The notes below the pieces were generated by a model. It was not told the DNA's origin. It did not search any database and saw only the letters and a program-made list of their open reading frames with translations. A DNA stretch of 64,000 nucleotides from an uncultured Spirochaetaceae bacterium (lineage in GTDB: Bacteria > Spirochaetota > Spirochaetia > SZUA-6 > RPPD01): contig CAZWYY010000013.1 in NCBI GenBank assembly GCA_964638895.1, positions 2,522-66,521 of the forward strand. Reading direction: 5' to 3'. Made by a program: the position numbers and the translations under genes. Shown piece after piece: positions 32,301-57,704 of the stretch; positions within the stretch are counted from its first letter, which is position 1; the number at the start of each line of letters is the position of its first letter.

Positions 32301-32987
32301 GTCTCGTAATGCTTTCATGGCGGCTATGGCCATTCCGTCATTGGCGGAAACTACCGCTTCAAACTCCCGTTTCTTGTTTAAGGCGTCAAGCACAATCCTG
32401 TAAGCCGCATCCGTATAAAAATCGGCTTGTGTTATCAACGCGGGATCGGGCATAATATTATGTGCCTGCAGAGCGGATTCAAAAATGCGCTGTCTTTCCG
32501 CCGCGTCCTGGTTTGTTTTGGGCCCGCCGATATAAAGGAATTTGCGGTACCCGTGATCTTCAATAAGGTGGTTCATGATTGATCTGAAACCCAGTTGGTT
32601 TTCGGCCTGGACATTGGTAATGCCCTGAAGTTGAAATCCGATGCTGACCATAGGCAGGGGCTGAAATCTTTTGCAGTATTCGCTTAACCGTTCATTCCCT
32701 ATAAACGTTGCCAAAACGGTGGAGGCCACGATCAGGCCGTTCAGTGAAAAAGGGGAGATGAGTTTGAATATTTCGTTATGCAGGCGCGCCGATTTATCCT
32801 CAGGCTTAAAATCACCGCTTAGAAAACAGACTACATTGACATCGGCCTCCTTGGCGGTCTGTTCCACTCCGGCCCAGATAATCCGCTGGTAGTCATCATC
32901 CACGTTATCCAAAAGCAGACCGATGGTAAGGCGTAAATCCTTTTTATCCGTGTTCTTTTTATTCGCTGTCTTCTTCCGCATTTTCAT
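29331..32987 (-). CDS. Hybrid sensor histidine kinase / response regulator with LacI-type (PBP type-1) ligand-binding domain and degenerate GGDEF domain
   Basis: N-terminal PBP1 sugar-binding-like region; H-box ITHDFRSHL; HATPase GTGIGLAFAKEL; REC ILIVDDDEPIR...DLIISDYNMP; GGDEF-like region with RYNAQEF. Confidence 0.8.
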   Translation of the reverse strand: MKMRKKTANKKNTDKKDLRLTIGLLLDNVDDDYQRIIWAGVEQTAKEADVNVVCFLSGDFKPEDKSARLHNEIFKLISPFSLNGLIVASTVLATFIGNERLSEYCKRFQPLPMVSIGFQLQGITNVQAENQLGFRSIMNHLIEDHGYRKFLYIGGPKTNQDAAERQRIFESALQAHNIMPDPALITQADFYTDAAYRIVLDALNKKREFEAVVSANDGMAIAAMKALRDRNIIIPDQVAVTGFDDIRSARHLFLPLTTVRQPTFEMSKRAAEILLQKIRGEPVPDLELFKTKVIIRRSCGCLSHETGRVAPSGKDTPKNASKPGFDSIKTSLLHELNEHNGPISQNFITPFVEDVIDAFQTELSIDTQSNIFLPRLDKALHRSWPAGMDDMVWGNTISSLRKIMLPYLRTNPDQLIKAENMLHQARIMIKDMAKHFESDKRLRLADTTKTLQYVIDTFIGSFDVPTLMDNLAVELPRIGIKSCYLSVHTAAEKIYKIACLLLAYNENGRIPLGKTGYMYTARHLLPKEVVKLKRRYNIIFQPLIFRQEQMGFVGLEFNPLEEISSLALSELIRSSLKASMMMQEIIEKDKKLSDLDRLKNDFIANITHDFRSHLTVILNSARLGLMSDTKEHFNEVIDRYNIIYEASVKLKQTIDRLLDLAKMDALGIKLRIQKLGLKAYIENIINFYKSATASSGVTIQSRLPEHEIEDFYTDVDKLEEILHNLVSNALKFVDPRKGIITISLLNKATTVEIRVRDNGIGIPRDKLEIIFGRFEQLDEHHNNRYAGTGIGLAFAKELTRYLRGSIRAESEGPGKGACFILEFKKGTEAFYDLSIDSQNANEPSDLSKRSQLKKIIKSNIKDSLQKEEIQTFFPERNRENEYDPKKGVILIVDDDEPIRAIVKEYLEKAGYMNFITATNGRDAIDAVYKYGVDLIISDYNMPKMRGDEMQDIIASNPYLKQTPVLFLTVMTDKRIIQERKEKGVLTFLTKPIDEKEFLVSVDIHMRRHMEYLQLLNQAPLDSLTGLANRTTIMVSLEDLLMLRVYRHLSVILFDLDDFTALNKEFGYRSGDAILADAGRIIKDSLRGYYRAGRYNAQEFLIILPETTLEQAHSYAEKLRHTIESTQITARGKKITLSASLGISSLIDNGGYICSKLNIEDLKAVFEMNLEESTDWRGIQKIKQDIKNLLLEMAQRAMSHAKKTGKNKTVGFTELQEME

Positions 32988-39673: not shown

Positions 39674-39865
39674 GTGTCCAAGAAGGTAAGCTCATTCAAG
39701 GAACTGGCGGAGTTCGTGCAGTCCTTCGGCATCAGCGAGAGTGAGGCCATTCACATTGCCGAAAGCTTTATGGACAGGAATAAGATCGATTTCGACGCGG
39801 ACGGGAACTTCACCCCGCTTGACGTGGATTTTTCCAAAGACAGCAATGAAATAAAAAAAGCCTGA
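39674..39865 (+). CDS. Small hypothetical protein
   Basis: 63-aa ORF with RBS-like GAGAGGA upstream; no recognisable motif. Confidence 0.25.
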   Translation: MSKKVSSFKELAEFVQSFGISESEAIHIAESFMDRNKIDFDADGNFTPLDVDFSKDSNEIKKA

Positions 39866-39869
39866 TACC

Positions 39870-40802
39870 ATGAAGTTTTTTCGAGCCGGCCTGCTGCCGT
39901 GCATCATTATTTTTTTTACCTGCGCCCCGTCTAATCAGTCTTCCCATGTCCCGGTGTATATCCAGGACTACCACACCGGCAGTTTTTACTGGCTGGCACG
40001 GCACCTTGACTGGTACAAAGAGTACCGGCTTATCCTCTTTGACGCGCACAGCGATGCGTTTGCCGTCTACCACTCCCAGACCTTAAAACAGGATCTAAGG
40101 CACGCCGTGGAGCAGGGGCGGCTGAATGAGCTGCTGGAGGCACTGCGCAGCCATAACATCATCCAGTGCTATAACTGGCTGGAGCCCCTCCTGCCGCGGC
40201 CGATCAACAGTGTGATCTGGGTCCCGCCCACGTATGTGGACGCTGAAGCGGAAAAACGCTTTCGCGCGCAGGTGAAACGGGAACTATGCGCAAGAGATCC
40301 CTCGTGCCCGGCCGGAGCATGTCCTCTGGGGAATATATTCAGCATTATGGATTTTGAAAAGTTGCTCTCAACTAATCAGACCGATACCCCCTGCGTAGTG
40401 AGCATCGATCTTGATTATTTTGCCTGCATGACCGCGGAACGGGCGGAAAAGAAACTTGAACAGGTACTCGATTTTGTGTTTCGCCTGCCCGGGCTTACGG
40501 CTGTGACCGTAGCCGTTTCCAACATATATCTGAAGGACGCGGCCCAGGGCCACCTGCTGTTGTTTTTTCTTTTGTGCTCACTTGTGGAAAAGCGCAGCCT
40601 GACCGTATTTTTTGAACCGTTCATGGACAACGGGAAGGACCTAAGCAGGGAAGCAAGAGAGTTTCTACAAAGGGGTGAGGTTCTGCCCGCCTATGATATT
40701 GAAACGGCGCCCGATTTTTTACGGCGGTTTTTCACCAGGCATCGGGAGAGTATAATTGTAAATCATGAAAACCGGCGCTGGCGGGAGCTGCTTGACCATT
40801 AG
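39870..40802 (+). CDS. Hypothetical lipoprotein with arginase/deacetylase-fold-like motifs
   Basis: Lipobox-like IIIFFTCAP; FDAHSDA and SIDLDYFA resemble ureohydrolase-fold metal-binding motifs. Confidence 0.3.
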   Translation: MKFFRAGLLPCIIIFFTCAPSNQSSHVPVYIQDYHTGSFYWLARHLDWYKEYRLILFDAHSDAFAVYHSQTLKQDLRHAVEQGRLNELLEALRSHNIIQCYNWLEPLLPRPINSVIWVPPTYVDAEAEKRFRAQVKRELCARDPSCPAGACPLGNIFSIMDFEKLLSTNQTDTPCVVSIDLDYFACMTAERAEKKLEQVLDFVFRLPGLTAVTVAVSNIYLKDAAQGHLLLFFLLCSLVEKRSLTVFFEPFMDNGKDLSREAREFLQRGEVLPAYDIETAPDFLRRFFTRHRESIIVNHENRRWRELLDH

Positions 40803-40868
40803 AAAAATAATAATTGACAACTGTTCCAGGCGTTTTATAATAAATACTGTTTAAAGGAGGGCGTGAAT

Positions 40869-43619
40869 ATGAAGTATCTTCAAATAGTTTTTGCGATAGC
40901 AGTCATGGCAGTGGTTGTTCCGGCCTGCAGTCCGGAACAGGGGCAAAGTCAGGATACCGCAGCGGGAAATACGGGTTTCGAAGATGAGGAGACTAAAAAA
41001 CTGGAACAGTCGTTGATCGGGGATGTAAAGGTAGATACGAAAAGCATCGATCAACTTCTTGACAATATTTCCGCAACGGACTTTAAACTGCCGGACAGAA
41101 ACATAAAACAGCCTTCCTATAACATGCTGGCCTTATATCTGGATGATCAACTTGTCTTTAAAAGCCTCGATTACGGCACATGGGAGGGAAAACGCATTGC
41201 CGTAGTGGGCAAGAGTAATGTGTTTATCTATGAAGATATTATTGCCGGCGGTTCCACGGATTTTTCCGGCCTTGAGAAAAAAAAGATTATAGAAGTTCCC
41301 AAGGGCACGATTGTTCCGCTTGAGAAAAAATATACAAACAAGGAAGGCGAATACAGCGACCTTTTTACCTATAACAACTACATGAACTACTGGTTTAAGA
41401 CCACCTATAAAGGGAAAAGGGGGATAATCTTCGGTGCCTACCTGGCAGGGCTCGATTACAGCGCAGAGCCCCGGGACGCGGCGGAAATCGTACGCACAAG
41501 TTATTATTATACCAAACCGGAAAAGGAAACGGTTTTTTATGACCATGTAGGAAGCCGACGCTTAAGTGATCAGATAAAAACCTGTCTGGTTGCGGATAAG
41601 CTGGCATTTGAAAAGGTAAAACAGAATGAGTATTACCTCAGTATTGATAACCCGGATGACCTGCTTGCACTTTATAAAAGGCTTTCGAATGACAAAACCT
41701 CAACTATATTCATTACCACCGATATGCTGACGCACTGCCTGCACCTGCTTTTTGACCGCATGCTGGAGTACGTGGAGCAGGAGAAATTCCTCCCCATCCT
41801 TACCTCGCTGGTGGATGATTATCTCCTTGAACTGGAGGCTTTGAAAACCGATACCGATGCTTCATCCAAGGTAATGCTTGCGTCCATAGAAACCATGAAA
41901 AATTATTTTAAGGTGGCCCAGGCCCTGTTAAAGGTTGCTTCTGCGGCAAAGCAGATCAAATCACAGAATGAGTCCCAGCCATGGGAAGATGAAAAAAAAC
42001 CGGCCGTTGATATCAAGACCATCAACGCATCATATCCTGAAATTGTAAAAAGTGAGCTGTCACTTATTTATAAAGCGGAAGGATTCGCCATATCCCCTAT
42101 CTTTAAATACAAGGAGGATTACACTCAGTTCAAACCGCGTGGGCATTATACCCGCAGTGTGGAGCTGGAGGCCTACTTTCGTACTATGATGTGGTTCGGA
42201 CGCATACACATGTATATCGATCCTAGTAAGGCGACGGTAAAAGGAGACGGAACACGTTTTGAAAAATCAATCGAACATGTGCCCTATATTCTTATACTGA
42301 CCAAGATCAGCAAAGAGAATAAAGACATCTTCAATAAATGGGTATCGTTATTCAAACCCATTAATTATGTGGTGGGTGAGCCCGATGATCTAAGCTTTTA
42401 CGATATCTATACTGTCCTGGACAAGGTTGATATGGACAATCTTGGGCCCTGGCTGGAAAAAAAGCAGAACATAGAAAACTTTATCAAACAAGCAGCACCG
42501 CTGCTGCGAGGAGCGCTTATACAGGGAAACACCGATGTGGTGTCCGGTCCCGGAGACACTGGACAGGTACCACCGCCACCCACAGGTTTCCGCTTTTTCG
42601 GCCAGCGTTTTACAATTGATTCGTTTATCCACAACCAGTTGAGCGGTGCCAGGGTAGATACCCGTAACATGGTAAAGGGGCTGGATATTATGGCGGTTTT
42701 CGGCAACAGTACCGCTTTGTCCCTACTGAAGGATGATTTTGCACATGTTAAAAATTTTAAAGAACAGTTTGCGAAGATGAAAACATTGATCCGGGGCTTT
42801 GATAATACAAGCTGGCGCAAGACCTTTTATAACGGCTATCTCAAGCTGGTACAGGAGATCACCACCTTTCAGAAGGGCAGCGGGTTTTATTTTACCCAGA
42901 GTAATAAATGGGATAAGAAGGCCCTGCTTACCTCTCATGCCTCGTGGGCCGAGCTGCGCCATGATACCATTCTGTACGTAAAACAGAGTTATGCCGAGCG
43001 GGCCGGGGGAGGGGGGGATGAGCCCATGTATGATCTTGACCCTATACCGGAGCCGATAAATTATGTGGAACCCAACCTGGGATTCTTTTACTGGCTGCAG
43101 GTGCTGTTACAGGATGGTATAGATATTATGGGTAATACCGGATTTATGGATGATAATTTCAAGACCAAATTCGCTGATTTCAACGAGATTGTTGATAAGC
43201 TTACGGCGATTGTGGAGCAGGAGGTAGCGGACAAACCGATCAGTAAAATGCAGAACGAGTTTATCCGCGGAATACCGGCCAAACTGGCCCGTATCATTCT
43301 TCCCCCCAAGGCCACCTTCGGCGGAAGCGGGGATGTCGATACCTTCAGGATGGCCCTGGTGGCCGACGTGCACACAGATGCGCTTGCCGGAGAGGTATTG
43401 GAAGTAGCCACCGGGATTCCCTACAGGATATACCTGGCCTTGAACGACGGCCAGGGAGGGAAACGCATCGCCATTGGGTATTCATACAGTTACTATGAGT
43501 TCCACCAGCCTATGGACAACCGACTGAACGACGACCAGTGGAAAAAGGTGGTGTATAAACAAACTGGAACACTCGACAAATATTTGCCGCCATGGGCCGA
43601 AGATATTATCTGCCGCTGA
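40869..43619 (+). CDS. Large (916 aa) hypothetical lipoprotein
   Basis: Signal plus lipobox MAVVVPACSP; AAAGGAGGG RBS before ATG 40869; no catalytic motif recognised. Confidence 0.45.
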   Translation: MKYLQIVFAIAVMAVVVPACSPEQGQSQDTAAGNTGFEDEETKKLEQSLIGDVKVDTKSIDQLLDNISATDFKLPDRNIKQPSYNMLALYLDDQLVFKSLDYGTWEGKRIAVVGKSNVFIYEDIIAGGSTDFSGLEKKKIIEVPKGTIVPLEKKYTNKEGEYSDLFTYNNYMNYWFKTTYKGKRGIIFGAYLAGLDYSAEPRDAAEIVRTSYYYTKPEKETVFYDHVGSRRLSDQIKTCLVADKLAFEKVKQNEYYLSIDNPDDLLALYKRLSNDKTSTIFITTDMLTHCLHLLFDRMLEYVEQEKFLPILTSLVDDYLLELEALKTDTDASSKVMLASIETMKNYFKVAQALLKVASAAKQIKSQNESQPWEDEKKPAVDIKTINASYPEIVKSELSLIYKAEGFAISPIFKYKEDYTQFKPRGHYTRSVELEAYFRTMMWFGRIHMYIDPSKATVKGDGTRFEKSIEHVPYILILTKISKENKDIFNKWVSLFKPINYVVGEPDDLSFYDIYTVLDKVDMDNLGPWLEKKQNIENFIKQAAPLLRGALIQGNTDVVSGPGDTGQVPPPPTGFRFFGQRFTIDSFIHNQLSGARVDTRNMVKGLDIMAVFGNSTALSLLKDDFAHVKNFKEQFAKMKTLIRGFDNTSWRKTFYNGYLKLVQEITTFQKGSGFYFTQSNKWDKKALLTSHASWAELRHDTILYVKQSYAERAGGGGDEPMYDLDPIPEPINYVEPNLGFFYWLQVLLQDGIDIMGNTGFMDDNFKTKFADFNEIVDKLTAIVEQEVADKPISKMQNEFIRGIPAKLARIILPPKATFGGSGDVDTFRMALVADVHTDALAGEVLEVATGIPYRIYLALNDGQGGKRIAIGYSYSYYEFHQPMDNRLNDDQWKKVVYKQTGTLDKYLPPWAEDIICR

Positions 43620-44497
43620 TCGCGGCGGCAGTGCTTTGCGCGTGCAGCGGCCGCGGGCATGGGGCCGATTCCGGTTACCCGTATAAGGTCCATCCCACCA
43701 CCGCCATGCTGGATAAGGATGTGCTGCGGGATATTCTAGAGCGGCGGCGGATTCCGCGGCATATAACAGTTCATGCGCTTCCGGCACATATGTTCCCGGT
43801 TGCCGGTTCGGTAAGCCATCACCTGTTGGTGGCTCCGCTGATCAATTTTTGGTTTACGGAGCTGGCACGGCTGCGCCCCGTAAATACATTTATCATCATA
43901 AGCCCGCGCCACTTTGAGCAGGGCAGGGAGTATATCTCGCTTTCGTCTCTTGCCTGGGACGCAGGTATTGGCGTGGTTAAACCGGATATCGAGTGCATCG
44001 CATTTTTGAAGAACCGCCTGGGGCTGGCCGAAGACCCGGAGGCCATGCACCTGGAACATGGGGTGGGTGCCCTGCTGCCTTACATAAAGCGTTATTTCCC
44101 GGCGGCACGGATCGTCCCGATTGTTATTGATCAAAAAAACTCGAAGGCCGGCAGGATAGACCTGCTGGCCGGGGCAATATTAAATTTGATAAGCAGCAGA
44201 AAAAATATATTTTTGTTAATTTCCACGGATTTTTCTCATCATGCCGACCCTGCAACAACCGTACAGCGGGACGAAAAAACGGTGCGGTTTTTGGACCGGC
44301 CGGCACCGGCCACGCTTCCCCTGGTGTACTCGGACAACAACAGGGGCCTGCGGATACTGGCTGAGTTGTATGTGGGGTTGGATCTGAACAGCGGCGCTCT
44401 GCTTTGCCATACGGATTCCTTTGCCTATACGGGTAAGGAGTCGGACGATATTACCAGTTATTTTTTTTACATGTGGGGCCGGACCGCAGGGGAATAA
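43592..44497 (+). CDS. MEMO1-family (AmmeMemoRadiSam system protein B-like) protein with N-terminal signal-like sequence
   Basis: IIISPRHFEQG, HGVGALLPYIKRYFP, LISTDFSHH motifs; N-terminal LPLIAAAVLCACSG. Confidence 0.5.
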   Translation: MGRRYYLPLIAAAVLCACSGRGHGADSGYPYKVHPTTAMLDKDVLRDILERRRIPRHITVHALPAHMFPVAGSVSHHLLVAPLINFWFTELARLRPVNTFIIISPRHFEQGREYISLSSLAWDAGIGVVKPDIECIAFLKNRLGLAEDPEAMHLEHGVGALLPYIKRYFPAARIVPIVIDQKNSKAGRIDLLAGAILNLISSRKNIFLLISTDFSHHADPATTVQRDEKTVRFLDRPAPATLPLVYSDNNRGLRILAELYVGLDLNSGALLCHTDSFAYTGKESDDITSYFFYMWGRTAGE

Positions 44498-44522
44498 TGC
44501 TGAAGCACCCGCGGGCGCGGAA

Positions 44523-45161
44523 CTAATGTAATTCCGCCCAGGGCTTACGCAGGTGTACGGACACCGCCTTGTAGAGACGGGCGTTTGGGTTAAGAAAAGC
44601 ATTCCTGTCCAGTCCCGCCTTGCGGCAGAGGGCGCCTAAAAAGGCCCGCTTGTCATACCCATGCTCTCCTGCGATCTGCGGCTGCAGCATGGCTTCGTGA
44701 TGATCCAGCTCTATACGCAGCATATGGATTTCCAGGTCGAAATCCATGGGATCCGTGATAGGAATCAGCCTGCCGATTACGGTTACTTCAAACTCGCATA
44801 GAGGAAGCTCCTCCTGTCGCAGCGGAGGATAACGGCCGTCGAAGAACGCGGCATCGATGACCGCGGCGCACACAGCCTGTTCCGGGGACCCGACACCTTG
44901 GTAGAACCCGATACAGCCCCGATCTTCCCCGTGATTGATAATTCGTAGGAAAACCCCCAAGTCATTTTCCGTATAGGGAATTTCTTTAAAGCCCAAAGAC
45001 GCGTGTGTGTCAAACTCTTCCCGGATGGCTGTCTTGGCCAGGATCAATAGACTGCGCAGCGTACGGTTATTATATGTCCGTCTCAATGAATCAGGGGAGT
45101 CGGCGACACAGGAAACCAGAAGCAGAATAAGCAGACCGTGAAATATGAAGGTGCGTCTCAC
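44523..45161 (-). CDS. AMMECR1-domain protein with lipoprotein-type signal
   Basis: DRGCIGFYQG hallmark motif, AVIDAAFFDGRYPPL; N-terminal LLILLLVSC lipobox; ATGA-coupled to upstream gene. Confidence 0.6.
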   Translation of the reverse strand: MRRTFIFHGLLILLLVSCVADSPDSLRRTYNNRTLRSLLILAKTAIREEFDTHASLGFKEIPYTENDLGVFLRIINHGEDRGCIGFYQGVGSPEQAVCAAVIDAAFFDGRYPPLRQEELPLCEFEVTVIGRLIPITDPMDFDLEIHMLRIELDHHEAMLQPQIAGEHGYDKRAFLGALCRKAGLDRNAFLNPNARLYKAVSVHLRKPWAELH

Positions 45162-46237
45162 GATGAACCTTCAACCTCGGCCAAGAGGCTTTCGGCGTCC
45201 GTGTAAAACGGGTTTATTTCCAGGGCCTTGCGCAACTCGATGCGCGCTTCATCCGGCCGGTGCCGGACGAGTGCCACCCGGGCACGGTAATACCAGGCCT
45301 CCTCGGAAAAGGGGTTGCGCCTGAGGATGCGTCCGGCAATGCCCAAAATCTGATCATAATCAGCGTCCCGGAAGAATATTTCATACATCGAGGTGTCGTA
45401 CCACGGCAGCCTCCAGGGCAGACCGGCCTTATATGCGTTTTTCAAGGCGGCGGCCGCCTCAGGATATCGGCCGGTGAGCAGCAGGTAGCGGGCCACGTTA
45501 TACCAGGCGAATCCGGATGTGGGATGCGCGGCAAGATCACCGTATACACGCCGCTGAAGCCGGATATGGTACAGGGAATTATCCCGACAGGTATTAATGA
45601 TCTCCCTGATCTTTTTTTGTTTTTGCCGTGGGGCGATCAGTACATAGGTCCACATAAAATGAGACCAAAGTGCATTCAGTTTTTCATACGAATAGAAGAC
45701 CGCGGGGCCGTACAGCGCGTCCATGACGATATAACCGGCCCTTTTATCCGAATACCCGGTGATGATGATATAATGGCACATCCAATTCCCGGGCTCCGGT
45801 TCAAGTCCGATCTTGAGCATCACCGGAATGTTGTTTGTGAGCAGTTCTTTTACCATTTGGCCGCTGCCGTCAGTGTTCCGCACGGCGTACAGTCCCAGGC
45901 CGTGCGCGTAGGCCATAAGCTCGCGTATGCCGGTGTGTTTATCATCCGGATCGGGACGCACCATCTGTCTGATTTCCTCCTGTGACTTATCAATTCCATA
46001 GGCGCTCAACAGCATTGAAAGCGAGGCGGGGCCGCAGTTGTTCCAGGTCTGGTAGTAATGCTTCAGGTTTTTTATAACGTATTCGGCCGGAAGCGCGGCA
46101 GCGTGGTCGTACGCGTGACGCCCCCGGCATTCTACCTGCATATCCTTAATGCGCGACTGCGCGCTGTGGGAACTACAGGATGGTATCGCGGCAAATAGCG
46201 GGATGCAGATACAGCCGAGCAATAATATTCTGTTCAC
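45158..46237 (-). CDS. Peptidase C39-like (papain-fold) domain protein with C-terminal TPR repeats, exported
   Basis: WNNCGPASLSMLLSAYG Cys motif, HYIIITGY His region; TPR-like C-terminal repeats; signal-like N-terminus. Confidence 0.5.
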   Translation of the reverse strand: MNRILLLGCICIPLFAAIPSCSSHSAQSRIKDMQVECRGRHAYDHAAALPAEYVIKNLKHYYQTWNNCGPASLSMLLSAYGIDKSQEEIRQMVRPDPDDKHTGIRELMAYAHGLGLYAVRNTDGSGQMVKELLTNNIPVMLKIGLEPEPGNWMCHYIIITGYSDKRAGYIVMDALYGPAVFYSYEKLNALWSHFMWTYVLIAPRQKQKKIREIINTCRDNSLYHIRLQRRVYGDLAAHPTSGFAWYNVARYLLLTGRYPEAAAALKNAYKAGLPWRLPWYDTSMYEIFFRDADYDQILGIAGRILRRNPFSEEAWYYRARVALVRHRPDEARIELRKALEINPFYTDAESLLAEVEGSS

Positions 46238-46286: not shown

Positions 46287-47594
46287 CTATAACCTGCGCC
46301 TGTCAATTACGCGCCTGCTTTTACCTTCGCCCTGCTGCAGGAGGGATTTGGGCTCAGCCAGGGTTACCTTGGCCTCGAGCCCCAACTGTTCTTCCAGTTT
46401 GCCGGCGATGGTGCGGCGCAGGCTTTCCAAGGTCTTAAGCTCGTCAATGGAAGGCAATTTCTGTGAGAGCTCGACCCTGATCTCGATGGTTTCCTCACCC
46501 CCCTCTCGATCAAGGACGATCTGGTAGTGGGGGGCCGTGCCCTCGATACCATGGAGTATTTCCTCGATCTGGGAAGGGAAGATCTTCAGCTCTTTATAGA
46601 AGATACAGTCGTCGGTGCGGTCCGTGACCCGGTGCATGCGCACCAGGGTGCGGCCGCAGGAACACGGCTCCGGGATCAGCCTGCTTAGATCCCCGGTGCG
46701 GTAGCGGATAAGGGGGAACCCTTCTTTGGTAATGGTGGTAAACACAAGCTCGCCCTCCTCTGAGGGCCCAACCGGCTCTAGGGTCTTGGGATTGATGACC
46801 TCCACGATAAAATGATCCTCGTTTACATGCAGGCCGCTGCGCTGGTCGCACTCACCGGCCACGCCCGGCCCCACTATCTCCGTCAGGCCGTAATTATCGT
46901 AACACACGACATGCAGCCTTTCCTCCAGGTATGCGCGGAGTTTTTCGCTCCACGGCTCGGCGCCCAGAAGCCCGGTCTTTAAAAACAGGGATTCCGGGTG
47001 CACCCCGCCTTCCTCCAGGGCGTATGCCAACTGCAGGGCGTAGCCGGGCGAACAGACCAGCGCCGTGGTTTTAAAATCCCTCATCACGGTGATTTGCCGT
47101 TCGGGCATTTTGGCGAACGAGGCCGGGATCACGGACGCGCCGATCTGCTCCGCTCCCTGGTGAAACCCGAATCCGCCGGTAAAAAGACCGTAATTATAGG
47201 CGATCTGCACCACATCGTGCTCCGTGATGCCCGCGGCGTTCAACACACGCGCCGTGCACTCGCTCCACATTTTAAGATCGTTCCTGGTATAGCCCACGAT
47301 TACGGCCTTGCCGGTGGTGCCGGAGGTGGCGTGAATCCTGATGATGTCGCGCAGAGGCACGGCGAACATATCGTAGGGATAGCTTTTGCGCAGGTCCTCC
47401 TTGGTGGTGAAGGGCAGGAAGCGCAGGTCGCCGATCGATTTTATCTTTTCGATATTTATATTTTGCCGGTTAAAAAGCTGTCTGTAAAAGGCCACATTGC
47501 GGTATACCCTGTTTAGGGTGGACTGCAGCCGTTCGATCTGGAGCTGATCCAGGTCGCGGCGTTCCATACTCTCCATGTCCTTGTTATACAACAT
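46287..47594 (-). CDS. Phenylacetate-CoA ligase family (PaaK/F390 synthetase-like) adenylate-forming enzyme
   Basis: HATSGTTGKAVIVGYTRNDLKMW; ~40-50 percent identical to paralogs 52764-54062 and 56270-57619. Confidence 0.75.
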   Translation of the reverse strand: MLYNKDMESMERRDLDQLQIERLQSTLNRVYRNVAFYRQLFNRQNINIEKIKSIGDLRFLPFTTKEDLRKSYPYDMFAVPLRDIIRIHATSGTTGKAVIVGYTRNDLKMWSECTARVLNAAGITEHDVVQIAYNYGLFTGGFGFHQGAEQIGASVIPASFAKMPERQITVMRDFKTTALVCSPGYALQLAYALEEGGVHPESLFLKTGLLGAEPWSEKLRAYLEERLHVVCYDNYGLTEIVGPGVAGECDQRSGLHVNEDHFIVEVINPKTLEPVGPSEEGELVFTTITKEGFPLIRYRTGDLSRLIPEPCSCGRTLVRMHRVTDRTDDCIFYKELKIFPSQIEEILHGIEGTAPHYQIVLDREGGEETIEIRVELSQKLPSIDELKTLESLRRTIAGKLEEQLGLEAKVTLAEPKSLLQQGEGKSRRVIDRRRL

Positions 47595-47606
47595 GCTATA
47601 ACCTCC

Positions 47607-48341
47607 CTACTCATTGATCTTTTTGTATTCCTTGCCCAAATAAGCCCGCTGTACGTCGCGGTTATCAAGCAACTCACCGGATGTGCCCTCCAGCACAACC
47701 TGGCCGGTTTCCAACACATAGCCACGATCCGCCACGGCTAGGGCCGCCCTGGCGTTTTGCTCGACCAGGAGAATTGTCACCCCCCGCTTCCGCAGGATGG
47801 TGATTGTATGAAAAATCTGCCGCACCACCAGCGGGGCTATGCCCATGGACGGCTCATCCATCATCAAAAGCCCGGGCCCGGCCATCAGCGCCCGGCCCAT
47901 GGCCAGCATCTGTTGTTCACCGCCGGAGAGCGTCCCGGCCAGCTGCCGCCTGCGTTCCTGCAGCACGGGAAACATAGCGTACACCTCCTCAAGGCGCTCG
48001 GCCGTTTGGCGTGCCCGCCCCTGCCGGAGATGCCGGTACGCGCCCAGGGTAAGGTTTTCCGCTACGCTCATAGGACTGAACACCAGACGCCCCTCGGGTA
48101 CCAGCGCGCACCCCAATCCGATTATCTTTTCCGGAGGTTTGTTTTCGATATGTTCATCGTGCAGCAGTATTTCACCCTGTTGTGTCTTCACTACACCGGC
48201 GATGGTGTTAAGCAGCGTGGATTTTCCCGCGCCATTGGCGCCGATGATGGTGACGATCTCACCACGGTTCACATGCAAAGAAATACCCTTCAACACACGC
48301 AGCTGCCCGTAGCCCGATTCCAGGTTCCGTACCTTAAGCAT
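47607..48341 (-). CDS. livF: Branched-chain amino acid (HAAT) ABC transporter ATP-binding protein LivF-like
   Basis: MLKVRNLESGYG..., IIGANGAGKSTLLNTIAG; start trimmed to Met 48341. Confidence 0.75.
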   Translation of the reverse strand: MLKVRNLESGYGQLRVLKGISLHVNRGEIVTIIGANGAGKSTLLNTIAGVVKTQQGEILLHDEHIENKPPEKIIGLGCALVPEGRLVFSPMSVAENLTLGAYRHLRQGRARQTAERLEEVYAMFPVLQERRRQLAGTLSGGEQQMLAMGRALMAGPGLLMMDEPSMGIAPLVVRQIFHTITILRKRGVTILLVEQNARAALAVADRGYVLETGQVVLEGTSGELLDNRDVQRAYLGKEYKKINE

Positions 48342-49107
48342 ACTCCTCCCCCAAATACACGCGGATGACCTCGGGGTTCTTTTGAATTTCCCTGGGCTTG
48401 CCCTGAGTAAGGAGCCGACCCTGATCCAGGACCACGATATGATCGGAAATGTCCATAATAAGCGACATGTCGTGCTCAACCACCAGCAGCGTTATCCCCG
48501 ATTTTTTTAGGCATGTAATATACGAGGAAAGCTCCGCGGTTTCATGCATATTCAGTCCCGCGGCCGGTTCGTCGAGCAGCATAAGTGCGGGCTTCGCGGC
48601 CAGGGCGCGCGCGAACTCCACCAGACGCTGCTTGCCGAAGGGTAGGCCCCCGGCGAACTCATTAGCGTAAGGCAGCAGGTCGAACCGCCGCAGGAGTTCC
48701 AGTGCCATGCGCCGGAGCTCCCGCTCATCCCTCCAGGAGCCGGGCAGGGCCATAATACAGGAGAAGAAGCCGGCGCGGGAGCGGATGTGGCACCCGGCCA
48801 TGACGTTTTCAAGTACGGTCATGTTCTGAAACAACCTTGTGGTCTGAAAGGTCGAGGTGATTCCCAGGCGGGCGATCTCGTGCGGTCTTAATCCATGAAT
48901 GGATTTCCCCCTGTACCATACGCCGCCGCTGTCCGCCTGCAGCCTGCCGGAGATCAGATTGAACAGCGTGCTTTTGCCCGCGCCGTTGGGGCCGATCACC
49001 GCCTGGATAACCCCGGACGGTACCGTGAAGCTGACATCATGCACGGCCTTAAGGCCGCCGAAAGAGCGGCAGAGGTTTTTTATCTCAAGCAGAATTTCTT
49101 TTGGCAT
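48334..49107 (-). CDS. livG: HAAT ABC transporter ATP-binding protein LivG-like
   Basis: VIGPNGAGKSTLFNLISG, LLDEPAAGL. Confidence 0.75.
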   Translation of the reverse strand: MPKEILLEIKNLCRSFGGLKAVHDVSFTVPSGVIQAVIGPNGAGKSTLFNLISGRLQADSGGVWYRGKSIHGLRPHEIARLGITSTFQTTRLFQNMTVLENVMAGCHIRSRAGFFSCIMALPGSWRDERELRRMALELLRRFDLLPYANEFAGGLPFGKQRLVEFARALAAKPALMLLDEPAAGLNMHETAELSSYITCLKKSGITLLVVEHDMSLIMDISDHIVVLDQGRLLTQGKPREIQKNPEVIRVYLGEEYA

Positions 49108-50176
49108 ATTTTCCGATCTTTTCCACGAGTTTTTCTTTCCAGCGGGCGAGCCGTACCAGGTTCAAAAGCCCGCGCGGGGCGAACAGCATGATCAAAATAA
49201 GGATGGCTCCAAAAACGATATCGTCGAACGAGCCGAATACGCCGCGTAGGGATAAAAAGTTAAGCAGGGCGCTCATCAACACGCAGCCCCAAAGGTTGGC
49301 CATGCCGCCCACGGCCACAATGGCAACGTAGCGTACGGATTTCATCACCGAGGCCTCGGACGGGCCGATCGAGCCGTTATAATGGGTCAGCAGCGCTCCG
49401 GCCACGGCCGCGAACACCGCGCTTAAAATGAAGGTATACAGCTTGTAGCGCGTGGTGTGGATGCCCAGTGAGTTGGCGGCCGTCTCATCCCCATGAACGG
49501 AGCGCAGGGCCCTACCCGCGCGCGAATGGATGAGATTGATGCAGATAAGCAGGGCGATGAAAACAACCCCCCAGGCAATATAATAGTTTGATACGCGCAG
49601 GGGCACGCCGGAACTCACCTCGGTAAGCCCGAAAAATGAGAAGGGCGGGACCCCGGTGATGGGATCGTGCGCCCCCAGAACCGGTGTTGCGTCTATAAGC
49701 GTCTTGATGATCACGCCGAAACCCAGGGTGGCCATGGCCAGGTAATGGCCGCGCAGCCTGATAACCGGAATCCCGATAATCAGCGCCACCAGGACCGCCA
49801 GGAATATGGCCAGCACAAATGCCGCCGCCGGGGCAAAGGAAAGCAGCCGCGCTCCGTACAGGTCCTGCCGCGTAACCAGCAGTCCGGCGGCACGCAGCAA
49901 CCGGATAAAGGGCGACGAGGCAAAAACCGTGAGATCAAAGGTGGTAAGCACGGCGGACGTGTACCCGCCGATGGCGAAAAAGGCCGCGTGGCCCAGGGAG
50001 ATCTGGCCGGCGTACCCGATGAGCATACTCAGGCCTACTACCACGACCGTGTAGTAAGCGGCCTGGGTAAACTCTTTCAGGTAAAAGGAAAGCCCGGCGG
50101 CTGAGAGGATAAGCTGGAGCACAATAATGATTCCTAAAAGTACGCCCAAGGGGAGGTAGCGCCTAAGATCCATCAA
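49085..50176 (-). CDS. livM: HAAT ABC transporter permease LivM-like
   Basis: Polytopic membrane protein in liv gene order. Confidence 0.65.
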   Translation of the reverse strand: MMDLRRYLPLGVLLGIIIVLQLILSAAGLSFYLKEFTQAAYYTVVVVGLSMLIGYAGQISLGHAAFFAIGGYTSAVLTTFDLTVFASSPFIRLLRAAGLLVTRQDLYGARLLSFAPAAAFVLAIFLAVLVALIIGIPVIRLRGHYLAMATLGFGVIIKTLIDATPVLGAHDPITGVPPFSFFGLTEVSSGVPLRVSNYYIAWGVVFIALLICINLIHSRAGRALRSVHGDETAANSLGIHTTRYKLYTFILSAVFAAVAGALLTHYNGSIGPSEASVMKSVRYVAIVAVGGMANLWGCVLMSALLNFLSLRGVFGSFDDIVFGAILILIMLFAPRGLLNLVRLARWKEKLVEKIGKYAKRNSA

Positions 50177-51084
50177 AACTCCTTAAGCGCGTTTTCCTCG
50201 GCACTGCCGAAAAGCCCGCTTGGTTTTATGGTCAGAATAAGCAAAAGAATGCCCACCGAGACCGCGTCGCGATAGGCCATGGGCAGGACACTGACGCTGA
50301 AGCTTTCGATCATGCCCAGCATGATCCCGCCGGCCACGGCCGCCATGCTGTTGCCCAGCCCCCCGATGATGGCCACGGTAAACCCTTTGATCGCAAAGCC
50401 CGAGCCCATATCGTAACTGGTTTTTGCCAGGGGTGAGATGGCGCAGCCGGCCAGGGCCCCCAGGGCCGCTGAGATCATGAAGGAAAGCGTGACCATGAGT
50501 TTGACATTGATGCCGCACAGCCCGGCCGCTGTTTTATTGGCCGCGCAGGCCCGCATGGCCTTGCCCGTAAGCGTGTACCGGAAAAACAGATACAGGGCGC
50601 CCACCAGCAGGGCGCAGATGCCGATGATCCACAGGTCCTGGGGAGAGATGTTCGCGCCCAGGATACCGAGAGAACTCCCCTCCGTGCCGCTGAAAAAGGG
50701 CAGGGCGTAGGTTTTTATACCCCAGATGTAGGACATGCCCTCGCGCATCACGATAGACAATCCGATGGTGATCACGATCAGGCGCAGCACCGCCGGATTT
50801 TGGGGCCAGCCGATAAACAAAAACTCTATGGCCGCGCCGATAGCCGTGGTGATGGCCACGGCCACCAGGATGGCCAGGACCAGGGCCAGGCCGGTGGGCA
50901 GGGCCAACGCGGTAAAAAGCGCGTGTAGGCTGACGGCAAGGAGAGCCCCCACAATGAGGAACTCTCCCTGTGCAAAGTTGATTACTCCGGTTGTGTTATA
51001 GATTATATTAAAACCGATGGCCACGATGGCGTAGATGCTGCCCACGCGCAGCCCGGCAAAAAAGTACTGGAGTATGATATCCAT
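50173..51084 (-). CDS. livH: HAAT ABC transporter permease LivH-like
   Basis: Polytopic membrane protein; ATGA-type overlap. Confidence 0.65.
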   Translation of the reverse strand: MDIILQYFFAGLRVGSIYAIVAIGFNIIYNTTGVINFAQGEFLIVGALLAVSLHALFTALALPTGLALVLAILVAVAITTAIGAAIEFLFIGWPQNPAVLRLIVITIGLSIVMREGMSYIWGIKTYALPFFSGTEGSSLGILGANISPQDLWIIGICALLVGALYLFFRYTLTGKAMRACAANKTAAGLCGINVKLMVTLSFMISAALGALAGCAISPLAKTSYDMGSGFAIKGFTVAIIGGLGNSMAAVAGGIMLGMIESFSVSVLPMAYRDAVSVGILLLILTIKPSGLFGSAEENALKEF

Positions 51085-51093
51085 AACGTCCGG

Positions 51094-52263
51094 TTATTCC
51101 TTATATAAAACGAATTTTCCGTCCTTTACCACGTACATGACCAGCGAGTCCATGCCCAGGCCGTTGTGATCGGTGGGTGAATAATTATAAATACCGCCCG
51201 TGCCCGGGTGATTTTTAAGGTTCTCGATATACTCACGCACTTTTTCCTTGTCCGTTCCCACGGCCTTGATGGCCTCCACCAGGATCATTAATGCGTCATA
51301 AGCATGTCCGCCGAAGGTGCTGACGTCTTCCTTGTAAGTGTCTTCGTACATCTTTTTGTATGCCACCAGCAGCGCCTTCTGGGGGTTGCTGTCCGGTAGT
51401 TGTTCGGCTGCAAGCAGCCTTCCACAGGGGAAGAGGATCCCCTCGGCGGCGTCCTTGCCGATGGCCTCCACGTACTTGATGTTGCCGAAACCGTGACTGT
51501 GGAACAACGGAACGTTAAAGCCGATCTGTTTCATGTTCTGCGGGATGATGGACTGGGCCGGAAACACGGACCAGTTTACCACAGCGTCCACATTGCTGGC
51601 CTTTACCTTGTTGAGTAGGGCCGTGAAATCGCTGTCCTTTACGCTGTACTCCTCCGAGATTACGATCTCCACCCCGTACTGTGACGCGTATTTCTCGAAC
51701 TGCTCCTTGCCGGATTTGCCGAACCCGGTGGCGCCCACAACCAGTCCGATACGCTTGATGCCCTTGTCCTGCATGGTTTTCAGGACCCACTGGGCCGCGT
51801 AACGGTCCTGCTGCGGGGTGGTGAACACCCATTTGGCGACCGGATTGGAAATGGACTCGGCCGCGGCGCATGACATATTGATAGTCCGGCCCTTTTCACA
51901 GATGTCCTTTATGGCCATTGAGGTGCCGCTTGAGGTGGGCCCGATAATGGCGAACACCTGGTCCTCTTCTATCAGTTGGTTGGCAAAACCGATGGCCTTT
52001 TCCGAACTGGCCTGCGAATCTTTGAGAATGAGTTCGATCTTGTGGCCGTTGACGCCTCCTTTGGCGTTGATCTCATCGACAAGCATCTGCGCGGTTTTTA
52101 CCTCGGGATCCCCCAGGAAGGAGATGGGCCCGGTTTGCGCGAAGATCGCTCCGATCTTTATGCTCTCACCGCCCCCCTGGGCGCAGGCGGATAAAAAATA
52201 CGCGAGACTTAGGGCAATAGTGAGAAGCATGGAAAGTCTGAACCAAAGCCGAAATTTTTTCAT
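51094..52263 (-). CDS. livK: Branched-chain/aromatic amino acid ABC substrate-binding protein (LivK-type)
   Basis: Signal peptide, type I PBP features (GPTSSG...). Confidence 0.65.
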   Translation of the reverse strand: MKKFRLWFRLSMLLTIALSLAYFLSACAQGGGESIKIGAIFAQTGPISFLGDPEVKTAQMLVDEINAKGGVNGHKIELILKDSQASSEKAIGFANQLIEEDQVFAIIGPTSSGTSMAIKDICEKGRTINMSCAAAESISNPVAKWVFTTPQQDRYAAQWVLKTMQDKGIKRIGLVVGATGFGKSGKEQFEKYASQYGVEIVISEEYSVKDSDFTALLNKVKASNVDAVVNWSVFPAQSIIPQNMKQIGFNVPLFHSHGFGNIKYVEAIGKDAAEGILFPCGRLLAAEQLPDSNPQKALLVAYKKMYEDTYKEDVSTFGGHAYDALMILVEAIKAVGTDKEKVREYIENLKNHPGTGGIYNYSPTDHNGLGMDSLVMYVVKDGKFVLYKE

Positions 52264-52319
52264 ACCGTGATACCTCCTTTTTTTGCACGTATGATAATAC
52301 TTTTTATCTGATCTTCCAA

Positions 52320-52751
52320 TTATAAATCTTTGAGTCCTGCGTCAGTGACTACCGAGATATTATTGTCCCGCAGCACTTTAATGGCCGCGGAGGCGTCCTC
52401 GATCCTGAATACCAGGATGGCATTGTCCACCCGTTTTTCCACGAACGCGTACATGTACTCGATGTTGATGTTGTTTTTCAGGAATATCTCCAGGATGCGG
52501 TGCAGGCCTCCGGGCCGGTCCTCAACCTCGACCGCGATCACGTCCGTCTCCTGGGCCACGAAATGATGCTCCTTTAACACCTTCAGGCACGCGGCAGGAT
52601 CGTCCACTATCAGGCGCAGAACTCCGAACTCCGCGGTCTCGGCCAGGGCCAGAGTGCGGATGTTTATCCCGGCGTCCGCCAATAGCCCGGTCACCTCGGC
52701 CAGCCTGCCGATCTTGTTCTCCAGAAAAATTGATATCTGTTTTATCTTCAT
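52320..52751 (-). CDS. ACT domain-containing protein (tandem ACT)
   Basis: ISIFLENKIGRLAEVTGLLADAGINIRTL. Confidence 0.6.
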   Translation of the reverse strand: MKIKQISIFLENKIGRLAEVTGLLADAGINIRTLALAETAEFGVLRLIVDDPAACLKVLKEHHFVAQETDVIAVEVEDRPGGLHRILEIFLKNNINIEYMYAFVEKRVDNAILVFRIEDASAAIKVLRDNNISVVTDAGLKDL

Positions 52752-52763
52752 GTTTGACTCCTT

Positions 52764-54062
52764 TTATAACTGACGTTTGTCTATGACCCGCTTGGCCTTG
52801 CCTTCGCTGCGCGGGATTGTGCCGGGCTCCACCAGTTTGACCCTGGCGTGAACGTTCAGCGCGGAATAAAGCTCCTCCTCCATGCGTTTCTCGTTGGCAT
52901 TGAGGTTCTTGATTTCGTCCGAAAAAAGATTTTCGGTCATCTCCACCTGGACCTCGATGCTGTCGAGCTGTTCCTTGCGGTCCACCAGAATCTGGTAGTG
53001 GGGTTCCACCCCCTCCACGCGCAGGAGTACCTCCTCCACCTGGGAGGGAAACACGTTCACCCCGCGCACGATGAGCATGTCGTCCGTACGCCCCAGCAGG
53101 CGGTGCATGCGCACCAGGCTGCGGCCGCAGGCGCATGTTTCGCGCGTAAGAAAGGTGATGTCGCGGGTGCGGTAACGCAGCACGGGCGTGCCCTCCTTGG
53201 TCAGGGTGGTAAACACCAGTTCCCCCCTTTGCCCTTCCGGTAGCGTCTCGCCCGTGGCCGGGTCTATGATCTCGGCGTAGAAATGGTCTTCGAAGATGTG
53301 CAGGCCGTCCTGCTCGAGACACTCGGCCGATACCCCCGGCCCGATAATCTCGGTCAGCCCGTAAATATCCAGGGCCTTTAAAAAAAGTTTGGCCTCGATC
53401 TCCCTGCGCATGCCGTCACTCCAGGGCTCGGCGCCGAACAGCCCCACCCGCAGCGGCAGATCGTTGAAGTCCACTCCTTCGCTTTTGCCGATCTCGGCCA
53501 GCAGCAGCGAGTAGGAGGGGGTGCAGGTAAGTACGGTGGACCCGAAGTCACGCATGATCTGGAGCTGGCGCTTGGTGTTGCCGCCCGAGATGGGAATCAC
53601 ATTGGCGCCCAGTTTGCGCGCTCCGTAATGAACGCCCAGGCCCCCGGTAAACAGCCCGTATCCGTACGCATTCTGCACGGTGTCATCCGCCGTCGTGTCG
53701 CCCATGGCCAGGGTGCGGGCCATGACCTCGGACCAGATTTCAATATCGCCCCTTGTATAGGCATCCACAACGGGCTTGCCGGTGGTGCCGGAAGAGGTGT
53801 GTATTTCTACTATATCGCGCTTGTCCGCGGCCAAAAGGCCCAGGGGATATACATCGCGCATATCGTCCTTGGTGGTAAAGGGCAGCTTGACGATATCCGA
53901 AATATCCTTGATATCGGACGGTTTCACGCGCAGTGCGTCCATCTTTTCCCTATAGAAGGGCACGCGTTTGTACAGCCGGGCCGTAAGCTCGCACAGGCGC
54001 CTGCTTTGCAGCTTCCGCAGCCCGGCCGGTTCCATGGCCTCGTATTCCCGGTTCCAGATCAT
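52764..54062 (-). CDS. Phenylacetate-CoA ligase family protein (PaaK-like), paralog 2
   Basis: [23 protein letters not shown]. Confidence 0.75.
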
Positions 54063-54655
54063 GTGGTTACCTCCTTCGTGAATGTCTTATAATAATCGCC
54101 GCCCTCTGCAAAGGCGGCCAGGTTTTGTTCCAGGAAGCGCCACGGCACCACTCCGGCGACGGCCTGTTCCCAGGCCGTGTTCGGGATTTCCAAGAGCGGG
54201 GCTATAAATCCCAGCAGGGCCGTGTTAAAGAACCTTTTGTCCGCGATACGCCCGGACAGGCGTTCCGGATCAATCAGGAGGAGTTCGGGGCAGGCTTTCT
54301 GCAGCTCATCCTCTATCTGCGCCGGGTACTCTTTCGCGGCCGCGGGTCTGATCCTGAAGCGGCAGACGGCGACCACGGTTTTCCTGTTGGCGTACGCCAG
54401 CCAGCGCAGGGTCTCCATCTCCTCCAGGGAGAGCAGAATGTCGGCCTCTCCCCGTGAGATTACCGGAGAATACACACTGGGGCCGAAGCGAACGTGGCTC
54501 GACACCGAACCGCCCCGCTGGCTCATGCCGTGAATTTCGCTTTTTTTGACATCCAACCCGTGGATCATGGCGGCCGTGCTCAGGATGTTGCTTGCCGTAA
54601 TGATACCCTGCCCGCCCACGCCCACCATCAGGATGTTGAAGTTTTTCCGCCGCAT
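54059..54655 (-). CDS. iorB: Indolepyruvate ferredoxin oxidoreductase subunit beta
   Basis: [19 protein letters not shown]...[16 protein letters not shown]. Confidence 0.7.
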
Positions 54656-54659
54656 GCGC

Positions 54660-57619: not shown

Positions 57620-57704
57620 GATCTTATTCGAAACAGTACGACATGTAAAGGCCGTTGCCAGAATAATAATTACCTGATACCCTGCGTACGAAAGGGGTGT
57701 TGCC

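Follow-up and report, generated by a model that had tools for sequence, protein, structure and literature searches.

In a window of 64,000 nucleotides (nt) from an uncultured Spirochaetaceae bacterium (contig CAZWYY010000013.1), five consecutive, close-packed genes were recognized at positions 39870-46237, and two of them encode proteins similar to Memo and AMMECR1. Memo (human MEMO1) and AMMECR1 (encoded in humans by a gene also called AMMECR1) are conserved from archaea to humans, and human AMMECR1 is linked to disease. We know of no agreed biochemical function for either protein, and in prokaryotes their association with a radical S-adenosylmethionine (SAM) enzyme has until now been the chief clue. 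Five families of the Memo clade have reportedly been distinguished, and are said to be linked to nucleotide-base and isoprenoid modification. An earlier note on this DNA had described an exported pair of MEMO1-like and AMMECR1-like proteins, accompanied by two lipoproteins and an exported C39-like Cys-peptidase/TPR protein, with no radical SAM enzyme among the neighbors.

The list of open reading frames (ORFs) agrees with the placement given in that note: three genes on the plus strand are followed by two convergent genes on the minus strand. The first gene (39870..40802, plus strand) encodes a predicted lipoprotein of 310 amino acids (aa) with no Pfam family above threshold, whose motifs suggest a UPF0489/arginase-like protein. 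It is followed by the genes for a predicted DUF3160 lipoprotein of 916 aa (40869..43619, plus strand; DUF3160 E-value 1.8e-165) and for the Memo-like lipoprotein of 301 aa (43592..44497, plus strand). The minus strand encodes the AMMECR1-like lipoprotein of 212 aa (44523..45161) and the C39-like Cys-peptidase/TPR lipoprotein of 359 aa (45158..46237). Profile searches confirmed the identities that had been proposed for these last three proteins. The Memo-like protein scores 52.1 bits against PF01875 (cutoff 27) and 77.7 bits against TIGR04336 (cutoff 26). The AMMECR1-like protein, which contains the DRGCIG motif, scores 97.4 bits against PF01871 (cutoff 25), and 89.7 bits against TIGR04335, which is under the cutoff of 99. 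The C39/TPR protein scores 49.5 bits against Peptidase_C39_2 (PF13529; cutoff 24), and this domain is followed by C-terminal TPR repeats matched by several TPR models.

The Memo gene, in one predicted operon with DUF3160, begins within the last 28 nt of the DUF3160 gene, and 25 bp separate the convergent Memo and AMMECR1 genes. The C39/TPR and AMMECR1 genes share 4 nt, which are GTGA (a GTG start) and not the ATGA reported earlier, and from this overlap AMMECR1 is predicted to be translationally coupled to the C39/TPR gene. A promoter-like site, TTGACA-16-TATAAT, which matches the consensus at 12/12 positions in a consensus scan, lies directly upstream of the DUF3160-Memo pair (40814..40841, plus strand). 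A longer ORF call for DUF3160 begins at 40863 and gives 918 aa. The ATG at 40869 sits 7 nt after AGGAGG, and the same start is used in a 916-aa copy sourced from NCBI (P0116); it is the more likely true start.

All five products begin with a Lys/Arg-rich segment, followed by a hydrophobic segment and then a Cys residue, in the contexts FFTC, VPAC, LCAC, LVSC, and IPSC in the order of the genes. To examine these N-termini and the gene neighborhoods, 64 related loci were collected with a scan based on the Memo-clade alignment, taking one genome per species, and the neighboring genes were identified by tblastn and phmmer with the proteins of the window. A lipobox heuristic was run over the ORFs of these loci. 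It recognized a lipobox in 28 of 32 AMMECR1 proteins, 39 of 45 DUF3160 proteins, 8 of 8 members of the 310-aa arginase-like family, and 51 of 63 Memo proteins, with a transmembrane-like N-terminus in 7 further Memo proteins; several of the misses are visible lipoboxes below the threshold. In the exported AMMECR1 clade (P0001-P0009; 208-212 aa, 38-100% identity), the hydrophobic N-terminus and the Cys are present in 9 of 9 sequences, whereas the start of canonical AMMECR1 proteins lies about 30 residues further on, and the whole N-terminal segment is missing from them (alignment A1). The Memo search returned 42 relatives, mainly from Spirochaetes and metagenome-assembled genomes of Treponema, and at least 90% of the 22 that were aligned (29-74% identity) retain the lipobox Cys, C18 (alignment A2). 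In the 310-aa family, C18 is invariant in an alignment of 19 sequences (A3). Signal peptides are kept in homologs down to about 30% identity. The lipobox-like N-termini that the earlier note had seen on Memo and AMMECR1 are thus found throughout their relatives. The same note had named, as one possible objection, true start codons downstream of the hydrophobic segments. The alignments of homologs rule this out, because the signal peptide and the Cys are conserved across whole clades. These data support the prediction that the Memo/AMMECR1 pair is exported or lipid-anchored.

The putative catalytic residues of Memo and AMMECR1 are, as judged from alignments, retained in the exported clade. The invariant residues of the Memo clade are SHH at 75-77, H107, E155-H156, D213, H216, and D248 (alignment A2). 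A search of PDB with the single Memo sequence gave no match, and only the profile of the clade reached human MEMO1 (3bcz), at an E-value of 1e-3. In this match the PxH and DFxH motifs of the query (H107, D213, H216) align with GPSHH and SSDFCHWG of MEMO1, and these residues would be the equivalents of MEMO1 H81, D189, and H192. For MEMO1 H49, the probable equivalent is one of the two His residues (H76 or H77) of the invariant SHH, which is outside the aligned stretch. No equivalent of MEMO1 C244 was identified in the Memo-like protein in alignment A2, and the invariant D248 falls in that region. The AMMECR1-like protein has archaeal relatives in PDB (1wsc, 1zq7, and 1vaj; E-values of about 1e-12), and R81, G82, C83, and G85 are invariant in exported and canonical sequences alike.

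The 64 loci are mostly from Spirochaetota, including Spirochaetaceae, many Treponema species with the cultured T. bryantii NK4A124 among them, and Spirochaetia with complete chromosomes; a few belong to Patescibacteria and Bacillota. The survey of genomic context proposed in the earlier note was performed on these loci. In 54 of them, down to 26-30% identity, the gene immediately upstream of Memo, on the same strand, encodes DUF3160. AMMECR1 is found near Memo in about 30; its gene either closely follows Memo in convergent orientation or closely precedes DUF3160 in divergent orientation. When all neighboring ORFs were clustered, Memo, DUF3160, and AMMECR1 were the only conserved families. Sediminispirochaeta smaragdinae DSM 11293, whose genome is complete, encodes DUF3160 (921 aa), Memo (302 aa), and a 505-aa AMMECR1 protein from a convergent gene, and the trio is also present in T. 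bryantii (L030). Both overlaps seen in the window, of 28 nt between DUF3160 and Memo and of 4 nt between C39/TPR and AMMECR1, are conserved. Close relatives (L002, L007-L009) share a wider synteny that includes Lhr and PaaK.

Components of the block are also joined by fusion. At locus L073, Memo is fused to AMMECR1 behind a lipobox (P0100), and the same 7-kb contig encodes DUF3160, a homolog of the 310-aa protein, and a C39_2/TPR protein, in a different order and with 27-40% identity to the proteins of the window. In relatives from Patescibacteria and Bacillota, Memo is fused to a PGA_cap domain behind an N-terminal membrane or signal segment.

The 310-aa protein contains the motifs DYH (33-35), DAHSD (58-62), and SIDLD (178-182). 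In alignment A3, which extends down to 15% identity, D33, H35, D58, D62, D161, and D180 are invariant and H60 and D182 nearly so, giving the family pattern DxH / DxHxD / SxDxD. When the family profile was compared with PDB, 9 weak matches were obtained, 5 of them to ureohydrolases (formimidoylglutamase, the peptide arginase 8brp, arginase, and two agmatinases) with E-values of 0.05-3. The only experimentally characterized UPF0489 member found in the literature searched is BipC from biphenomycin biosynthesis, an Mn2+-dependent peptide arginase with an arginase fold and the motifs EEHxE, DxHxD, and DIDLD (PMC12707348). Because of the correspondence of these motifs, we call the 310-aa domain UPF0489/arginase-like.

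In most other spirochaetes, the 310-aa domain is fused to the N-terminus of AMMECR1. The fusion proteins (at L023, L025, L026, L028-30, L036, L038-40, L043, L045, L056, L069, and L071) are lipoproteins of 480-540 aa from Treponema, S. smaragdinae, and many others, with about 300 N-terminal residues homologous to the 310-aa protein and AMMECR1 as the C-terminal third. This homology indicates that the 310-aa gene of the window is a split-off partner of AMMECR1. The earlier note had treated the two lipoprotein genes as mere neighbors. On sequence evidence, no partners of this Memo/AMMECR1 clade are conserved more widely than DUF3160 and the 310-aa arginase-like protein.

An exhaustive search of 1.84 billion representative sequences yielded 171 relatives of the 310-aa domain, many of which are 590-620 or 820-900 aa long. 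The 820-900-aa relatives end in a PGA_cap (CapA) domain, and the middle segment of the longer relatives has a GADCxNF...H motif. Outside the window, proteins P0237-P0324 (590-900 aa) combine an arginase-like and an NlpC/P60-like domain, with or without PGA_cap. No description of this architecture was found in a limited literature search.

The DUF3160 protein matches PF11369 with 552 bits over profile positions 6-623 of 632. Its AlphaFold2 model, built from an alignment of 63 sequences, has a predicted local distance difference test score (pLDDT) of 87.3 and a predicted template modeling (pTM) score of 0.83. A Foldseek search of PDB with this model found no relative (best E-value 0.3, TM <0.1), and a single-sequence search of PDB gave no match. 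In the protein of the window, an SH3b-like domain appears to span about residues 100-200, ahead of a core that covers about 250-900. Spirochaete DUF3160 proteins appear to share this layout, and the core is without a recognizable solved relative. About 35 residues of the core are invariant in the alignment, many of them His, Asp, Glu, or Arg, a pattern consistent with an enzyme. Archaeal DUF3160 proteins are devoid of the N-terminal 250 residues or so. DUF3160 was termed a "secreted enzyme" by Makarova et al. (PMC4158269), and no mention of it beyond this single source was found in the searchable literature.

Two candidate extensions of the DUF3160-Memo association were rejected. In the archaeon Methanolobus (L072), DUF3160 does not adjoin Memo. 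At L059 (3583-5256) and five other loci from Patescibacteria, a family of 557-911 aa with an N-terminal membrane segment is encoded directly upstream of the Memo-PGA_cap gene. This family has no Pfam match, and its interpretation as a divergent DUF3160 was ruled out by hhalign (probability 0.6%).

In the C39/TPR protein, a putative papain-like set of residues (Q63, C68, H155, and D173) is invariant in four orthologs. The link of this protein with AMMECR1, which had been proposed from the coupling in the window, was recovered elsewhere: the 4-nt overlap is conserved in four lineages (the window, L002, L004, and L007), and a counterpart with 27% identity is encoded beside the Memo-AMMECR1 fusion of L073. 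On account of this overlap and reappearance, the C39/TPR protein is considered, from its genomic context, a genuine but lineage-restricted member of the system. At L004 (4427-8517), a close relative, transposase genes (DUF772 and DDE_Tnp_1_6) are found in place of the Memo/DUF3160 side while the C39/TPR-AMMECR1 pair is kept, which suggests that the Memo/DUF3160 module was recently disrupted there. Taken over all loci, the gene contexts indicate with high confidence a conserved, exported, and probably lipid-anchored set in Spirochaetota, composed of DUF3160, Memo, and arginase-like plus AMMECR1 domains, with or without C39/TPR.

A radical SAM partner was sought by scanning all ORFs of at least 120 aa in the window for CxxxCxxC, followed by NCBIfam searches. 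Nine radical SAM-like ORFs were found, all within 43-26457, that is 13-40 kb upstream of the block, with the nearest at 13.4 kb. Two are of the twitch-domain type, some are B12-binding, and the others are generic SPASM-like or viperin-like. TIGR04337, the radical SAM family of the AmmeMemoRadiSam system, is absent among their reported NCBIfam matches (for three of them, the best 25 families). The nine ORFs are interleaved with genes for GT2 glycosyltransferases, FkbM methyltransferases, and an ABC-2 exporter, which indicates that they form a separate glycan-type cluster. By the same scan and searches in the 64-kb window, no AmmeMemoRadiSam-type radical SAM gene is present in the block or its flanks. 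The statement in the earlier note that no neighbor is a radical SAM enzyme therefore holds for the block and its flanks, but not for the window as a whole. Clustering of neighboring ORFs and a CxxxCxxC scan of the fetched DNA revealed no radical SAM family conserved near Memo across the 64 loci; genuine radical SAM genes occur in 4 of them and belong to four different families (B12-rSAM, HemW, TIGR03960, and a SPASM protein). A partner encoded just outside the block, which would have undone the original observation, is ruled out by the two scans together. The results support the view that, at the loci examined, no dedicated radical SAM partner is encoded with the exported Memo/AMMECR1 pair.

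The block is probably best read as an extracytoplasmic, lipoprotein-anchored, and radical-SAM-free variant of the Memo-AMMECR1 pair that acts on a peptide-containing substrate of the cell envelope; we give this reading a probability of about 0.6. The five proteins would be located in the periplasm or at the face of the membrane and would act jointly on envelope peptides; stem peptides of peptidoglycan are one candidate, and a different peptide polymer or a gamma-glutamyl polymer is another. The SH3b domain of DUF3160 would direct the set to the wall, the arginase-fold domain would hydrolyze a guanidino or amide group, as BipC does, and the C39 cysteine peptidase would trim the substrate. In place of radical SAM chemistry, Memo and AMMECR1 would rely on a bound metal and the conserved Cys. 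Outside the cytoplasm, SAM and a low-potential reductant are presumably lacking, and for this reason the radical SAM step may have been dispensed with or replaced there.

Several points weigh against this reading. The envelope-peptide substrate is suggested by the domains of the partners only (SH3b, papain-like and NlpC/P60-like peptidases, CapA, and the arginase fold), and taken by itself it is a tentative proposal with somewhat less than an even chance of being correct. The SH3_3 matches are weak (E-values 0.003-0.08) and are seen in 4 of 10 spirochaete DUF3160 proteins, all in the same N-terminal region. The match of the 310-aa protein to UPF0489 (PF12640) is below threshold (14.6 bits for a cutoff of 27, E-value 0.044), and its single-sequence AlphaFold2 model is unusable (pLDDT 38), so that the fold assignment depends on the motifs and the weak profile matches. 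The NLPC_P60 matches to the middle segment of the longer relatives are likewise below threshold, with E-values of 0.011 and 0.068 in 2 of 3 proteins. In 27 loci, DUF3160 and Memo are found without AMMECR1 in the fetched DNA, several of these with full 10-kb flanks, and C39/TPR is present in few lineages only.

A more far-reaching version would hold that Memo and AMMECR1 are not intrinsically dependent on radical SAM enzymes and that, with DUF3160 as an enzyme of novel fold and the peptide-arginase-like domain, they form a hitherto unrecognized periplasmic pathway of spirochaetes that modifies stem peptides or another envelope peptide. We regard this version as unlikely on present evidence, although if it were true it would show on which class of substrates the universally conserved Memo/AMMECR1 pair acts. 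Spirochaete walls contain ornithine, and arginine, ornithine, or gamma-glutamyl residues are speculative targets of such a pathway.

Among the alternatives to an envelope-modifying system, nutrient scavenging survives best, though it is rather improbable. In this case exported hydrolases would degrade peptides or polymers from the surroundings, for example poly-gamma-glutamate or peptides rich in arginine, and feed adjacent genes for amino-acid uptake and fermentation. The block does adjoin genes for a Liv-type ATP-binding cassette (ABC) importer, an indolepyruvate:ferredoxin oxidoreductase, and three PaaK-like ligases; peptidase and arginase-like domains are among the partners, and the description of DUF3160 as a secreted enzyme by Makarova et al. 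would fit as well. However, the PaaK/Liv neighborhood is kept in close relatives only, and the genes stand in other contexts in S. smaragdinae and Treponema. The associations with SH3b and CapA indicate the cell's own envelope, and lipid anchoring speaks against freely secreted digestive enzymes, while surface enzymes would still be compatible with it.

It is very unlikely that the block is an ordinary AmmeMemoRadiSam system with a radical SAM partner encoded elsewhere (at 43-26457 or a distant locus) and with N-termini that are mis-called or serve as tethers facing the cytoplasm. The labels in databases would favor it, as NCBI and JGI call the homologs "AmmeMemoRadiSam system protein A/B"; for these lipoproteins this is a systematic mis-annotation in the public records. 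The score of the Memo protein above the TIGR04336 cutoff and the unusual richness of the window in radical SAM genes point in the same direction. Against this stand the AMMECR1 score below the TIGR04335 cutoff, the lack of TIGR04337 among the reported matches of the nine ORFs and their glycan-type neighbors, and the four unrelated radical SAM families in four of the 64 loci in place of a conserved one. The N-termini with Lys/Arg, hydrophobic segment, and Cys are conserved across clades and missing from the canonical proteins, and the conserved partners, with DUF3160 and the CapA and SH3b domains, are typical of exported or envelope proteins. That the block consists of unrelated lipoprotein genes, brought together by chance in one spirochaete lineage, can hardly be sustained: relatedness explains a part of the conservation, as the wider synteny of the close relatives indicates, but the DUF3160-Memo adjacency holds to 26-30% identity and into Patescibacteria, three independent domain fusions join the components, L073 has all five in rearranged order, and both gene overlaps are conserved.

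The surroundings of the block in the window were also annotated. The Lhr helicase lies on one side, and the PaaK, Liv ABC, and indolepyruvate oxidoreductase genes on the other. An ORF of 63 aa (MSKKVSSFKELAEFVQSF...) at 39674-39865 (plus strand) ends 4 nt before the 310-aa gene, and has no signal peptide and no Pfam match. L007, L008, and L009 have it at the same position with 68-75% identity, and it is therefore likely to be a genuine small gene of this lineage. A hybrid sensor kinase/GGDEF protein, a short-chain dehydrogenase/reductase, and the Lhr-type helicase (1543 aa) are encoded between the radical SAM-rich cluster and the block. The hybrid protein (29331-32987, minus strand; 1218 aa) combines a periplasmic-binding-protein domain, HisKA/HATPase, a receiver, and GGDEF.

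The large co-directional cluster at 43-27722 (plus strand) includes the nine radical SAM ORFs and several ORFs without a Pfam match. All of the following genes are on the plus strand: twitch-domain radical SAM proteins are encoded at 43-1323 and 3717-5003, B12-binding ones at 16248-17681 and 25063-26457 (NCBIfam), FkbM-type methyltransferases at 5007-6734 and 23308-25038, GT2 glycosyltransferases at 10452-11528 and 14112-15290, and an ABC-2 permease/ATPase pair at 11525-12328 and 13128-14111. From its gene content, the cluster looks like an ABC-transporter-dependent glycan pathway with unusually many radical SAM tailoring enzymes. On the other side, an aromatic amino-acid/arylacetate module at 46287-57838 (minus strand) is syntenic in L002. 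It contains PaaK-like ligases (46287-47594, 52764-54062, and 56270-57838), LivFGMHK-type ABC importer genes (47607-52263), and a TPP/POR-type oxidoreductase pair (54059-56273), all on the minus strand.

The exported clade uncouples Memo and AMMECR1 from the radical SAM enzyme while the putative active-site residues appear to be kept. The operons and the fusions to arginase-fold, peptidase, CapA, and SH3b domains may narrow the plausible substrates to peptides or polymers of the envelope. DUF3160, a large family without a solved structural relative, would gain its first functional context, and the cultured S. smaragdinae and T. bryantii are tractable organisms for testing these proposals.

Four known systems can be compared with the block. 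The PA2778 family (NF033920) and Peptidase_C39_2 share with the C39/TPR protein the papain-like Q/C/H/D set followed by TPR repeats, and the match to PF13529 is above threshold. The protein is not an equivalog of the PA2778 family, as its score is 52.1 bits against a cutoff of 150, and it differs in being coupled to AMMECR1; to our knowledge, this coupling is not a described context for the family. CapA/PgsA proteins (PGA_cap, PF09587) are connected to the block through relatives of the Memo clade and of the arginase-like domain that are fused to PGA_cap, which places the module in an extracytoplasmic setting with envelope polymers. The window itself differs in having no PGA_cap domain and, among its annotated genes, no PgsB/PgsC-type synthetase.

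With the UPF0489 peptide arginases, BipC (PMC12707348) and OspR (PDB 8brp), the 310-aa protein shares a corresponding set of motifs: DxH, DxHxD, and SxDxD in the block correspond to EEHxE, DxHxD, and DIDLD in BipC. The 310-aa protein is below the thresholds of the family, is predicted to be lipid-anchored, and is linked to AMMECR1, whereas BipC-type enzymes are encoded in a cluster for a ribosomally synthesized and post-translationally modified peptide (RiPP).

Memo-AMMECR1 systems were named by Burroughs et al. 2019, as cited in PMC7159879. No description of an exported Memo or AMMECR1 protein was found in the searchable literature; Burroughs et al. 2019 is outside that scope and may mention the family. 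The exported system is, as indicated by sequence, a descendant of the Memo-AMMECR1 pair. It has in common with AmmeMemoRadiSam (TIGR04335/TIGR04336/TIGR04337) the Cys of RGCIG in AMMECR1 and the MEMO1-like His/Asp motifs in Memo, with a Memo score above the TIGR04336 cutoff, and Memo-AMMECR1 fusions are known in both the canonical clade (P0115) and the exported clade (P0100). Unlike that system, whose proteins are predicted to be cytoplasmic and signal-free, the block has an AMMECR1 protein under the TIGR04335 cutoff, no TIGR04337 partner, and predicted signal/lipobox N-termini on all members, and so departs from three of the four features by which the curated system is defined. Its partners are instead DUF3160, the UPF0489/arginase-like protein, and sometimes C39/TPR, and its distribution is centered on Spirochaetota.

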